Assembly: GCF_024298765.1 (NCBI RefSeq)
Contig: NZ_CP101210.1
DNA: 64,000 nt
Reading direction: 5' to 3' (one strand)
Origin: Escherichia coli
Lineage (GTDB): Bacteria > Pseudomonadota > Gammaproteobacteria > Enterobacterales > Enterobacteriaceae
This document shows, in pieces, positions 7,951 to 57,021 of the stretch. The translations under genes and the position numbers were made by a program. How positions within the stretch are numbered: the first letter of the stretch is position 1; the number at the start of each line of letters is the position of its first letter. Below the pieces are notes generated by a model. That model was not told the DNA's origin. It worked only from the letters and a program-made list of their open reading frames with translations, and made no database searches.

Positions 7951-8799
7951 ATGGCGACATACCTTATTGGCGACGTTCATGGTTGTTACGATGAACTGAT
8001 CGCATTGCTGCATAAAGTAGAATTTACCCCTGGGAAAGATACCCTCTGGCTGACGGGCGATCTGGTCGCGCGCGGCCCGGGTTCGCTGGATGTTCTGCGC
8101 TATGTGAAATCCTTAGGCGACAGCGTACGTCTGGTGCTGGGCAATCACGATCTGCATCTGCTGGCGGTATTTGCCGGGATCAGCCGCAATAAACCGAAAG
8201 ATCGCCTGACACCGCTGCTGGAAGCGCCGGATGCCGACGAGCTGCTTAACTGGCTGCGTCGCCAGCCTCTGCTGCAAATCGACGAAGAGAAAAAGCTGGT
8301 GATGGCCCACGCCGGGATCACGCCACAGTGGGATCTACAGACCGCCAAAGAGTGCGCGCGCGATGTAGAAGCGGTGCTGTCGAGCGACTCCTACCCCTTC
8401 TTCCTTGATGCCATGTACGGCGATATGCCAAATAACTGGTCACCGGAATTGCGGGGGCTGGGAAGACTGCGGTTTATCACCAACGCCTTTACCCGTATGC
8501 GTTTTTGCTTCCCGAACGGTCAACTGGATATGTACAGCAAAGAATCGCCGGAAGAGGCCCCTGCCCCACTGAAACCGTGGTTTGCGATTCCTGGCCCTGT
8601 CGCTGAAGAGTACAGCATCGCCTTTGGTCACTGGGCATCGCTGGAAGGCAAAGGTACGCCGGAAGGTATTTACGCGCTGGATACTGGCTGCTGCTGGGGT
8701 GGTACATTAACCTGCCTGCGCTGGGAAGATAAACAGTATTTTGTCCAGCCGTCGAACCGGCATAAAGATATGGGTGAGGGAGAGGCGGCTGCGTCTTAA
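7951..8799 (+). CDS. apaH: Diadenosine tetraphosphatase (symmetrical)
   Basis: 282-aa ORF, metallophosphatase motifs (GDVHG, GNHD). Confidence 0.95.
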
Positions 8800-9097
8800 A
8801 TCCCGTCGAGCATAAAATCTAATGCTCCTTTAATCAACGTTCGGTGCGCGCTGGCATCGCAAAATTTCGTTCCCAGCGCGTTAACTGGAACAGTTGCAGT
8901 CTCATGCGTCATGAGCCGTCTACCAGTAAAAGGATTGTGTTAAGCCGTTCTGGAGGGCGAATACGGATAAATCGTTCAATAGGTGTTAATGGAATAACAA
9001 TACGGCGATTAATCTCACCAATAATGTCGCTGGTAACATCGATAACAAAGGGAAACGCGGCGTTCCTGCCGCGACTGCGGTATACCGTAAATTGCAT
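8796..9097 (-). pseudogene. ccdB: ccdB-like gyrase-poison toxin gene, frameshifted: N-terminal 62 codons 9097-8912 then TGA; C-terminal part continues in another frame 8912-8796
   Basis: N-terminal ORF MQFTVYRSRGRNAAFPFVIDVTSDIIGEINRRIVIPL aligns with F-plasmid CcdB; conserved C-terminus [38 protein letters not shown] is read in a different frame immediately downstream. Confidence 0.7.
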
Positions 9098-9099
9098 CG

Positions 9100-9333
9100 C
9101 TAGAAGCTCCGGTACTCATCAGAGAAACATCCGGTTTCATCAGCCAATTGATTTAACGCAGCGATAGCTTCTGCGTTCTCTTCACGCCAACGTATTGCTG
9201 CATGTTTTTTAAGTTCAGCATTGAGCGCAACCGTAAGGGTGGCGCTCATATTTAAGCCTGCATCACGAGCGCGATTGACTAACTCACGGTCGACGGTGAC
9301 GGTCACACTTTGTGTGGTACGTTTTGCAGTCAT
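9100..9333 (-). CDS. ccdA: CcdA-like antitoxin
   Basis: 77-aa ORF with VTVTVD...W.EEN motif pattern similar to F-plasmid CcdA; stop is 2 nt before the ccdB-like ATG. Confidence 0.8.
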   Translation of the reverse strand: MTAKRTTQSVTVTVDRELVNRARDAGLNMSATLTVALNAELKKHAAIRWREENAEAIAALNQLADETGCFSDEYRSF

Positions 9334-9418
9334 GATATCGTGCTCCTGTACAATTTATACGTCTAGTAAACACGGATATCTGCACGTATCAGTGATGCCG
9401 GAATTCTAATATACAAAA

Positions 9419-11944
<2,526 letters not shown>

Positions 11945-17320: not shown

Positions 17321-17450
17321 TGCATCTCCAGAAATCATGAAGGAAACGTCGTTCATATCGGTGGTGTTAATTACAGATATCACGCCCTTTAATTTGGAAA
17401 TAAAACTTTAATCACCAATATTGAAAATGTCACACGCAGATAAATCCAAC

Positions 17451-17485
17451 TTTCAATATTGTTAAGCTCCTCACCAATATTGAAA
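17451..17485. promoter_or_regulatory. Putative CaiF activator site: 11-bp inverted repeats TTTCAATATTG / CAATATTGAAA separated by 13 bp
   Basis: Perfect inverted-repeat half-sites with 13-bp spacer in the divergent fix/cai control region; matches the published architecture of CaiF sites as I recall it. Confidence 0.6.
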
Positions 17486-17507
17486 ACATGGCGTAGAAAA
17501 AAGAAAT

Positions 17508-17542
17508 TTTCAATATTGTTTTATGGATCACCAATATTGAAA
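17508..17542. promoter_or_regulatory. Second putative CaiF site, same half-sites with 13-bp spacer
   Basis: Second copy of TTTCAATATTG-N13-CAATATTGAAA. Confidence 0.6.
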
Positions 17543-17636
17543 GTCAGATGCTATTTTTTACTCACAACAGAACATAACAAACTGATTAATAATCAAAATT
17601 AACGAAAAAATGCCCTCTATTCACCCGAAACAAAAA

Positions 17637-31536: not shown

Positions 31537-32451
31537 TTACGGCACCAGAGCCAGCACCTCAGCTACCCACTGCTGGAAGCCTTTTACATTCAGATCCAAT
31601 GCCACCTGTACATTGGCTGGTTTGCCCAGGCAACCGTCGATATCAACCACCGTCGTGCCAGAGGTAAATTCGCCCTGCGTTTCCACTGCCACAAAACACG
31701 GCTTGAGGGTGAATAAGTCCGGGCGCACCAGCCAGGCGATGGCGCAGAGATCGTGCATTCGCAGTCCACTTTGCATACTGCCGCTACGGTAGTGACTAAA
31801 CAGGGCGTGGAGCATTTTTCCGGTGCGATTCAACTCCGGCAAAGTAGCGAGATAGTCAGGGGTTAATATTGCCTGATTGGTGACATCCAGACCGCACATG
31901 ACAATTTCGATTCCGCTACGGAAGACACAGGCAGCCGCTTCTGGATCGGCGGCGATATTAAACTCGGCATTTGGTGTACAGTTGCCGCGACCAGCAGAAC
32001 CGCCCATGATCACCAGACGACGAATATACTGTTTACATTCCGGGCATTGTGAAAGTAACAGCGCAATATTGGTTAACGGGCCAATGGCTACCAGCGTAAC
32101 AGGCTCTGGTGCACGCAGCAGGGCATCACGAATCGCCAGAAACGCTGGTATCTCGAGTGGCTTTCGGTTGTGCTCAACAAAGTCGTAGCCAGCCATTCCC
32201 GATTCACCGTGCACAGATGCCGCATCACGCGGTGCGCGTACCAGCGGTACGGCTGCGCCCTGGGCAAGCGGAATCTCCGCATTCCAGAAATGCAGCAGTT
32301 GCAGGGCGTTGCGGGTCGTTTTCTCAACCGAGACATTACCCGCGACGGTGGTCATCAGTTGCAGGTCGAGTTCGGGGGCAAAAATCGCGGCGGCAATGGC
32401 GACGGCATCGTCAATGCCGGGGTCAGTATCGAGGAAGATAGGTAAACGCAT
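31537..32451 (-). CDS. rihC: Non-specific ribonucleoside hydrolase
   Basis: 304 aa from ATG at 32451 ([15 protein letters not shown]). Confidence 0.92.
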
Positions 32452-32462
32452 GTTTTCTCCAT

Positions 32463-32532
32463 AAAAAATGCCGGTAACAAGACCGGCATTTTTTATGGAG
32501 AAAACATGCCGGTAACAAGACCGGCATTTTCG
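32463..32532 (-). terminator. Two tandem copies of a hairpin (GCCGGTCTTGTTACCGGC plus T-run) between ispH and rihC; likely terminators
   Basis: 38-bp periodic repeat; each copy is a GC-rich stem followed by T-run on the minus strand. Confidence 0.5.
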
Positions 32533-32554
32533 CATAACTTAGGCTGCTAATGAC

Positions 32555-33505
32555 TTAATCGACTTCACGAATATCGACACGCAACTCTTTCGGCACTTCG
32601 AAAACAATGTTTTCTTCACGACCTTCCAGCGGAATGGCTTCGCCACCGCCAAGCTGCTGTAAACGTGCGACTACGTTCTGTACCAGAATATCCGGAGCCG
32701 ATGCGCCCGCAGTCACGCCGACGCATTTAACCTCTTTCACCCACTCTTCCTGGATATCTTTCGCATCGTCAATCAAAAACGCGCGTTTGCCCATGCGCTG
32801 GGCCAGTTCCGCCAGACGGTTGGAGTTGGAGGAGTTTTTCGAACCGACCACCAGCACCACTTCCGCCTGTTCTGCCAGAGCGCGTACCGCTTCCTGACGG
32901 TTAGTAGTGGCGTAGCAGATGTCATCTTTGCGCGGACCGACAATTTTCGGGAAGCGTTTACGCAGCGCGTCGATCACATCAGACGTGTCATCCACCGACA
33001 GCGTGGTTTGGGTCATAAAGGAGAGCTTCTCTTCGTTTTTGACCGTCAGTTTCCACACATCGTCTGGCGATTCGACCAGATACATTCCCCCTTCCGGGTT
33101 GCTGTACTGACCCATTGTCCCTTCCACTTCCGGGTGACCGGCGTGGCCGATGAGAATAGATTCTTCGCCACGGCGACTGGCGCGGGCGACTTCCATATGC
33201 ACTTTGGTCACCAGCGGACAGGTGGCGTCGAATACCGTCAAATCACGGCTTTTCGCTTCGTTACGTACCGCCTGAGAAACACCGTGTGCGGAGAAAATCA
33301 GGATCGCGCCGTCCGGTACTTCGCTAATCTGCTCAATAAAGATAGCCCCACGCTCGCGCAGGCTATCGACCACATAGCGGTTATGCACCACTTCATGACG
33401 GACATATATCGGTGCGCCGTAAATGGCCAGCGCGTTTTCAACAATGCTGATAGCGCGGTCTACCCCGGCACAAAAACCACGCGGGTTGGCCAACAGGATC
33501 TGCAT
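32555..33505 (-). CDS. ispH: 4-hydroxy-3-methylbut-2-enyl diphosphate reductase
   Basis: 316 aa from ATG at 33505 ([19 protein letters not shown]). Confidence 0.95.
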
Positions 33506-56983: not shown

Positions 56984-57021
56984 CGAAAAAAAAGCCCGCA
57001 CTGTCAGGTGCGGGCTTTTTT
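56984..57021 (-). terminator. thr attenuator (leader terminator hairpin)
   Basis: Minus strand AAAAAAGCCCGCACCTGACAGTGCGGGCTTTTTTTT between thrL and thrA. Confidence 0.85.

Follow-up and report, generated by a model that had tools for sequence, protein, structure and literature searches.

A perfect palindrome over the rihC ribosome-binding site of Escherichia coli, probably generated by a replication template switch

The ispH-rihC spacer and its repeats

The stretch of Escherichia coli DNA analysed here (64,000 nt of contig NZ_CP101210.1; hereafter the window, whose positions serve as coordinates throughout) carries, between the genes ispH and rihC, a spacer in which a terminator-like hairpin is present twice and a long perfect palindrome covers the translation start of rihC. 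Both genes are read on the minus strand. In the list of open reading frames (ORFs), ispH, the last gene in the cluster ribF-ileS-lspA-fkpB-ispH, occupies positions 32555..33505 (951 nt, including the TAA stop codon at 32557-32555); annotated orthologues are also 951 nt long and share its 3' end, GTCGATTAA. The rihC coding sequence, intact and 915 nt long, lies at 31537..32451, and its ATG (32451-32449, placed by the ORF and by the RefSeq start in other strains with the same spacer) falls inside one arm of the palindrome.

The spacer itself (32452..32554, minus strand) is 103 nt long. K-12 MG1655 and strain 104, the closest relative of the window, have 65 nt instead, and this 65-nt spacer (the short form) equals the 103-nt spacer (the long form) minus 38 nt. 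An earlier note on this DNA, which had put the K-12 spacer at about 65 bp, was right about the gain: alignment with K-12 confirms that 38 bp were added locally. In the direction of transcription, the long form is composed of GTCATTAGCAGCCTAAGTTATGCG-AAAATGCCGGT-CTTGTT-ACCGGCAT-GTTTTCTCCATAAAAA-ATGCCGGT-CTTGTT-ACCGGCATTTTTTATGGAGAAAAC-ATG, in which the hairpin unit ATGCCGGT-CTTGTT-ACCGGCAT is present in two copies, 38 bp apart. The 22-nt hairpin ATGCCGGTCTTGTTACCGGCAT occurs exactly twice, on the minus strand at 32468-32489 and 32506-32527, in agreement with the two copies and the period described in that note; even with 3 mismatches tolerated, no further copy was found in the rest of the 64 kb, and 100 shuffles gave 0 matches.

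Each hairpin belongs to one copy of a perfect 25-nt direct repeat, AAAATGCCGGTCTTGTTACCGGCAT, with a spacing of 38 nt. The ispH-proximal copy (32506..32530, minus strand) forms an 8-bp stem with a CTTGTT loop, followed by a weaker tail, GUUUUCUCC; its RNA hairpin has a folding energy of -14.2 kcal/mol and was flagged as terminator-like by a scan. The rihC-proximal copy (32468..32492, minus strand) is followed by the original U-tract, UUUUUUAU. Between them lies an inverted core (32490..32505, minus strand), which reads GTTTTCTCCATAAAAA in the direction of transcription. It matches the reverse complement of the rihC leader (32452-32467) at every base, and no other part of the long form is absent from the short form. 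The junction of the long form reads ...GGAGAAAACATGCCGG..., and CCGGCATTTTTTATGGAGAAAACATGCCGG would serve to recognise this form in other genomes.

As a result of this arrangement, positions 32448..32509 form a 62-bp perfect palindrome, with arms of 28 nt (32448-32475 and 32482-32509, 100% complementary) and a 6-nt loop (32476-32481), which contains both the ATG and the Shine-Dalgarno sequence of rihC (GGAG, 32457..32460 on the minus strand, in the 3' arm of the RNA hairpin). An inverted repeat spanning this translation start had already been described as near-perfect with 27-bp arms; its presence and its extent over the Shine-Dalgarno sequence and ATG hold, whereas the arms are in fact 28 nt long and perfect. 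No other perfect hairpin in the window is as long, and the second has 14-nt arms. The predicted folding energy of the RNA of the 131-nt spacer region is -52.7 kcal/mol, against -24.2 +/- 3.4 for shuffled sequences (z = -8.4), with -45.2 kcal/mol for the palindrome stem alone, and the 62-mer folded as DNA reaches -32.3 kcal/mol (z = -12 to -15). This second hairpin (56988-57021; arms AAAAAAGCCCGCAC...GTGCGGGCTTTTTT of 14 nt) maps to the annotated Thr leader of strain 104 and is the thr attenuator.

Ancestral state and probable mechanism of origin

We consider it likely that the long spacer is a derived allele, created in one step by a replication template-switch mutation of the quasipalindrome type at the intrinsic-terminator hairpin downstream of ispH. 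Concerning its polarity, a single hairpin copy in a near-invariant spacer is found in E. albertii, E. whittamii, Escherichia sp. MOD1-EC7003 and a divergent 'E. coli', and the short form is taken as ancestral because these outgroups have one copy. The opposite polarity, a long ancestral form followed by thousands of losses, was rejected: the short form is present in all four outgroups and in more than 5,400 E. coli genomes, and the carriers of the long form stand at the tips of the tree with short nearest relatives. As an observation in its own right, the 65-nt spacer shows only 2 substitutions in E. albertii and 1 in the divergent 'E. coli', with several differences in the adjacent coding sequences, a pattern that suggests purifying selection on the arrangement of terminator and ribosome-binding site.

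In order to identify the events able to convert one form into the other, all events of the four-point model (PMC5453318), in which a growing strand leaves its template, copies the complementary or nascent strand and then returns, were enumerated on the short form. Whichever strand is being synthesised, a single event suffices to turn the short form exactly into the long form, and every inserted base derives from local sequence. Each strand has 60 exact solutions. They are equivalent placements (5 x 12) and reflect the microhomologies at the two switches, one of 4 nt (GCAT/ATGC) and one of 11 nt (AAAATGCCGGT/ACCGGCATTTT). The short form already contains the structure from which such an event could start, namely an 11-bp stem (AAAATGCCGGT/ACCGGCATTTT) with a 6-nt loop (free energy as DNA of -11.1 kcal/mol, z about -6 to -7), and the palindrome arms have grown from these 11 nt to 28 nt, again 100% complementary. 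The attributes of a quasipalindrome mutation are therefore all present at the level of the sequence: a prior hairpin, bases templated by the opposite arm, switches at two microhomologies and a longer perfect palindrome as the product.

The earlier note had explained the two hairpin copies by a tandem duplication, which in its ordinary form would be a slipped-strand duplication of a 38-bp unit followed by divergence. The 38-nt period and the two head-to-tail units (32448-32485 and 32486-32523), which are 84% identical, do have the appearance of such an event. All 6 differences between the units are, however, confined to one 16-nt block, GTTTTCTCCATAAAAA in one unit and TTTTTATGGAGAAAAC in the other, and these are exact reverse complements. 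When every 38-bp tandem duplication of the short form was enumerated, none gave the long form, the closest requiring 5 extra substitutions; moreover, the 6 differences are identical in four lineages which have otherwise barely diverged from their short-form relatives, and an intermediate with two identical units is absent from 5,426 genomes. We thus assign next to no probability to this explanation, the core of the repeat being inverted and not duplicated in tandem.

Two other kinds of rearrangement were also considered and rejected. A mobile or dispersed repeat (REP/BIME or MITE-like) does not agree with a motif that the 64 kb contain nowhere else, even at a tolerance of 3 mismatches, and with inserted bases that are all local; a 311-nt query spanning the spacer matches a median of one place per genome. 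Inverted triplication (DUP-TRP/INV-DUP-like) was discarded by inspection, as no segment B gives the order B-B'-B. In Rfam, no family reaches its gathering score for this sequence, the best match, at 45 bits where 100 are required, being to a microRNA (miRNA)-precursor model into which any long hairpin would fit.

Two routes could lead from the short form to the long form by template switching. In the first one, the nascent strand with the window's plus-strand sequence would fold back through the 11-bp stem AAAATGCCGGT/ACCGGCATTTT, its 3' end would then copy 13-17 nt of its own strand (TTATGGAGAAAAC[ATGC]) and would return by the ATGC microhomology 21-25 nt behind the point of departure, so that the hairpin would be copied again. 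This route would be intramolecular, because the stretch copied by the plus-sequence strand is located behind its 3' end. In the second one, the other nascent strand would perform the mirror-image switch, giving the same product; here the growing end would move to the strand on the opposite side of the fork, because the copied template lies ahead of the 3' end. With either route, the net result would be the gain of 38 bp, consisting of a 16-nt inverted copy of the rihC leader and a second copy of the hairpin. In K-12 the locus lies at ~27 kb, with the genes oriented toward increasing coordinate; given the known positions of oriC and the terminus, transcription at ispH-rihC is presumably co-directional with the replication fork. 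If so, fold-back would take place on the lagging strand, and the cross-fork switch on the leading strand.

Template switching at quasipalindromes, both intra- and inter-molecular, is an established mutation mechanism in E. coli, with natural hotspots (PMC7202029, PMC5941160), and its rate is modulated by 3' exonucleases, by azidothymidine (AZT) or fluoroquinolones and by the strand (PMC7202029). The known cases (the Ripley model; the thyA and rpsL hotspots; lacZ QP5/QP6; PMC7202029, PMC5941160) share with the rihC palindrome an imperfect inverted repeat as substrate, templating by the opposite arm, switches at microhomologies, a longer perfect palindrome as product and the hotspot character. 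In those classical cases, scored in the laboratory, a few mismatches are corrected in the arms of an 18-bp quasipalindrome within a gene. At rihC, in contrast, the arms gained 17 nt, the return point lies behind the departure point and the hairpin was copied a second time, with a net insertion of 38 bp and a 25-nt direct repeat, and the site is an intergenic terminator in natural isolates. The single events known as four-point template switches, and those producing de novo RNA and miRNA hairpins (PMC5453318, PMC8794818, PMC10710096), are likewise characterized by a long perfect stem made in one event and by an indel with a cluster of mismatches, and it is known that template switching makes perfect RNA stems in one event (PMC8794818, PMC5453318). 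They are, however, mostly eukaryotic or located in ribosomal RNA, and each was inferred once on a phylogeny, whereas the rihC event recurs on at least four backgrounds in one bacterial species and over a ribosome-binding site. The rihC palindrome is a new natural example of this known class of mutations, with hotspot evidence: a natural case in which one replication error probably made a long perfect RNA/DNA hairpin over a ribosome-binding site, with its states, microhomologies and polarity resolved.

There is also a practical side to this type of event. In the BLAST comparison with strain 104, the inverted core appears as 6 apparent mismatches beside a break in the alignment; standard aligners show the template switch as an indel accompanied by six false single-nucleotide polymorphisms (SNPs), and it may therefore pass as a SNP cluster in variant calls.

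Rarity and recurrence of the long form

Only four of 5,426 complete E. coli genome records (0.07%) contain the long junction intact, and these represent three strains: HNSQ2209, D97-1 (deposited twice) and CH4799. The next-best matches after these four records are two-piece alignments of the short form. The two-copy arrangement is thus not universal in E. coli; had it been universal, this would by the terms of the earlier note have spoken against its proposal of a local duplication. A search for additional long-form genomes in a collection of 15 billion proteins, by means of the peptide that a long-form N-terminal extension of RihC would have, gave two matches, both of them short-form loci with homopolymer indel errors. 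About 11 of the 5,426 genomes (~11/5,426) have no contiguous match across the spacer. One E. coli genome, EC42405 (NZ_CP043414.1; 3600-4910 of the extracted stretch), has a 1.2-kb gene annotated as 'XAC2610-related protein' between ispH and rihC; the terminator there, AAAACCAGCA...TGCTGGTTTTTTTT, is unrelated, and the N-terminus of rihC, MTKLIPIFLDTD, is divergent.

A sequencing or assembly artefact, arising for example from polymerase fold-back in vitro during library preparation or from mis-assembly of the palindrome, was also considered. Palindromes are error-prone on some platforms, in-vitro polymerases are capable of the same template switch and the evidence is at the level of assemblies, not of raw reads. 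Nevertheless, exactly the same 38 bp are shared by the window and three assemblies made independently, in different laboratories and countries, whereas more than 5,400 further assemblies of the locus lack them; a wrong consensus would need the error in most reads, and the error-prone assemblies that we met show homopolymer indels, not this insertion. An artefact is, in our view, exceedingly improbable.

The comparison of the flanking sequences indicates on how many backgrounds the long form is found. The window differs from the short-form strain 104 by 1 substitution in 13 kb, and across all 64 kb by 10 SNPs, an indel of 1 nt and the 38-bp insertion; rihC has 0 substitutions between the two, both in the alignment and by BLAST. 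Among the 71 genomes at least 99% identical to the window, the 25 best span 9,963 bases against the 10,001 of the query, and all of them are 38 bp shorter. The distance between the window and the other carriers (HNSQ2209, D97-1 and CH4799) is far greater, at 402-425 substitutions in 13 kb, and these three differ among themselves by 89-187 substitutions over the same length. Each of the database carriers is a singleton, with nearest relatives 99.9-100% identical over 8 kb that span 8,037 bases against the 8,075 of the query and are thus 38 bp shorter. The long form therefore sits on four haplotypes, including that of the window, and on each of them the nearest relatives are short.

Four independent origins of an identical product, at a recurrent mutational hotspot, are the simplest reading of this distribution, and the identity of the product is explained by the microhomologies, which fix the junctions. 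A single origin, in which one ancestral long allele was moved between lineages by homologous recombination on very short tracts, would also account for a 103-nt spacer that is identical in all carriers, and HNSQ2209 and CH4799 indeed share a flanking haplotype from -226 to +248. On the other hand, SNPs of the strain 104 lineage persist in the window as close as 54 nt upstream and 116 nt downstream from the insertion, and those private to D97-1 begin at -91, so that a transferred tract could not exceed about 270 bp; in addition, long-form donors amount to roughly 1 in 1,000 genomes, and the identity of the spacer is uninformative because it is invariant across E. coli. We regard a single origin as highly improbable.

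Several points weigh against an origin by template switching at a hotspot, as preferred here. The mechanism is read back from its product, and the two routes described above would leave the same sequence. Loop-inverted alleles, the other classic product of template switching, were found at the one-copy hairpin in 0 of 5,426 genomes, the best match keeping 5 of the 6 loop mismatches, and a 30-mer from the junction gave 0 matches in metagenome contigs. The case for recurrence depends on flanking haplotypes, across which micro-recombination patches shorter than about 270 bp could have carried the allele, the claim of a hotspot is built on four backgrounds, and the long form was read from assembled sequences. 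The same 38-bp change on four backgrounds nevertheless implies that intrinsic-terminator hairpins may be natural hotspots of template switching, and the event could be measured by junction-specific polymerase chain reaction (PCR) on an unmodified chromosome.

Predicted effects on expression and stability of the allele

Neither a sigma-70-like promoter in the interval from ispH to rihC nor one created by the insertion was found in a consensus scan, and because of this the messenger RNA (mRNA) of rihC, probably read through from ispH, would carry the whole spacer with its palindrome. In the ancestral arrangement, only 4 nt separate the end of the hairpin's U-tract from the Shine-Dalgarno sequence. 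The minimum free energy structure of the long form includes the full 28-bp stem, and the predicted probability of being unpaired falls from 0.04-0.30 to 0.00 for the GGAG and from about 0.95 to about 0.29 for the AUG. Keeping the region from -13 to +3 single-stranded would cost 20.2 kcal/mol in the long form against 5.3 in the short form, and for the region from -20 to +13 the corresponding values are 31.8 and 16.1 kcal/mol, so that the predicted additional cost of opening the ribosome-binding site is about 15 kcal/mol. These predictions agree with the suggestion, made from the sequence at the outset, that the structure could sequester the rihC start. In simulated folding of growing transcripts the ispH-proximal hairpin forms first, and the second stem zips up as the Shine-Dalgarno region emerges.

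With the Shine-Dalgarno sequence and the AUG locked in the 28-bp stem, translation of rihC would be cut strongly while its coding sequence stays intact; in standard thermodynamic models of initiation, a penalty of 15 kcal/mol corresponds to a drop of several hundred-fold or more, and on this prediction the long form probably silences the translation of rihC. The helicase activity of the ribosome, co-transcriptional translation or an unrecognised promoter could lessen this effect. Hairpins that sequester a Shine-Dalgarno sequence and AUG, such as RNA thermometers and engineered hairpins in 5' untranslated regions, have in common with this one the predicted mode of action, with GGAG and AUG placed in a stem that is costly to open. 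Unlike RNA thermometers, the rihC stem (28 bp, -45 kcal/mol) is far too stable for physiological melting, and there is no evidence of sensing.

With respect to ispH, the sequence has the properties of an intrinsic terminator, with a predicted G+C-rich stem-loop and a U-tract at the end of the transcription unit. Termination after ispH should be kept or doubled in the long form, because the rihC-proximal copy retains the ancestral stem and the UUUUUUAU tract; the ispH-proximal copy is also terminator-like in the scan, with the poorer tail GUUUUCU. As in intrinsic and tandem terminators, each copy has a G+C-rich 8-bp stem and a 6-nt loop, followed by one or the other of these tails. In contrast to selected tandem terminators, the second copy would here be a by-product of the template switch. 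In the literature on the transcription and termination of ispH-rihC, no paper combining all three terms was found, and a review on ribonucleoside hydrolases contains nothing on the regulation of rihC expression in E. coli.

It could be argued that the allele is a selected regulatory innovation, with the same mutational origin, which recurs because silencing of rihC or stronger termination of ispH helps in some niches. An identical allele on four backgrounds, with a large predicted effect on the ribosome-binding site and an intact rihC in all carriers, is what such parallel adaptation would leave. All occurrences are, however, singleton tips, with no clonal expansion and at the frequency given above; an intact rihC is equally expected of a very recent neutral event, the microhomologies alone account for the identical product, and the hosts or sources (pig, dog, human and unknown) have no evident common factor. 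We therefore consider adaptation unlikely, although it deserves some weight. The physiological stake is in any case little, because rihC is a dispensable gene in E. coli. Its product, RihC, is a non-specific ribonucleoside hydrolase (PMC10526354).

The insertion that a template switch would have created could also be lost again. Slippage between close direct repeats flanking a hairpin is a well-known route of deletion in E. coli. At this locus, excision between the two copies of the 25-nt direct repeat restores the short form exactly, and slippage between them would delete the insertion and bring back the ancestral spacer without a trace. Such traceless reversion would explain why the long form is seen only as recent singletons at the tips of the tree, and no counter-selection need be assumed. 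As expected from recent events, rihC is intact in all carriers. A bolder proposal is that the ispH terminator hairpin works as a reversible two-state switch of rihC, turned OFF by template-switch insertion and ON by slippage, and maintained by selection for transient silencing of rihC. If true, this would amount to phase variation based on a palindrome, a kind that relies neither on homopolymer slippage nor on an invertase. Both directions of switching would be mechanistically possible, with the long form at 0.07% of the genome records; we give this proposal a very low probability.

The insertion has one further effect, on annotation. An upstream ATG (32533..32535, minus strand) stands 46 nt before rihC in the short form and 84 nt before it in the long form, and the added 38 nt put it in frame with rihC, which gives a mechanical ORF of 332 amino acids. 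No ribosome-binding site is evident for this ATG, RefSeq keeps the canonical rihC start in long-form strains, and the N-terminal extension of the 332-amino-acid ORF, probed as a peptide, is used by no gene caller in the 15-billion-protein collection. The upstream ATG is probably an annotation trap that is not used, and having been brought in frame it could mislead annotation. Two public assemblies of this locus contain homopolymer-length errors in the A- and T-runs beside the hairpin (AAA for AAAA and TTTT for TTTTTT), which give spurious short ORFs; in one of them nearly all genes are fragmented, as is typical of an unpolished long-read assembly.

Two other regions of the window deserve mention. 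The divergent intergenic region between fixA and caiT (17400-17550) contains five copies of the motif CACCAATATTGAAA / TTTCAATATTG in alternating orientation, reported as a 43-nt imperfect inverted repeat; they are probably known regulator sites of the cai/fix promoters. Two of the 11 small differences between the window and strain 104 are located in this region, an A/T substitution at 17506 and a 1-nt indel at 17554. Between apaH and folA, the annotation of strain 104 gives a chromosomal ccdA antitoxin and a frameshifted ccdB-family toxin, at about 8800-9330 in the window (9043-9580 of the strain 104 stretch), and the SNP at 8790 between the window and strain 104 adjoins this region.

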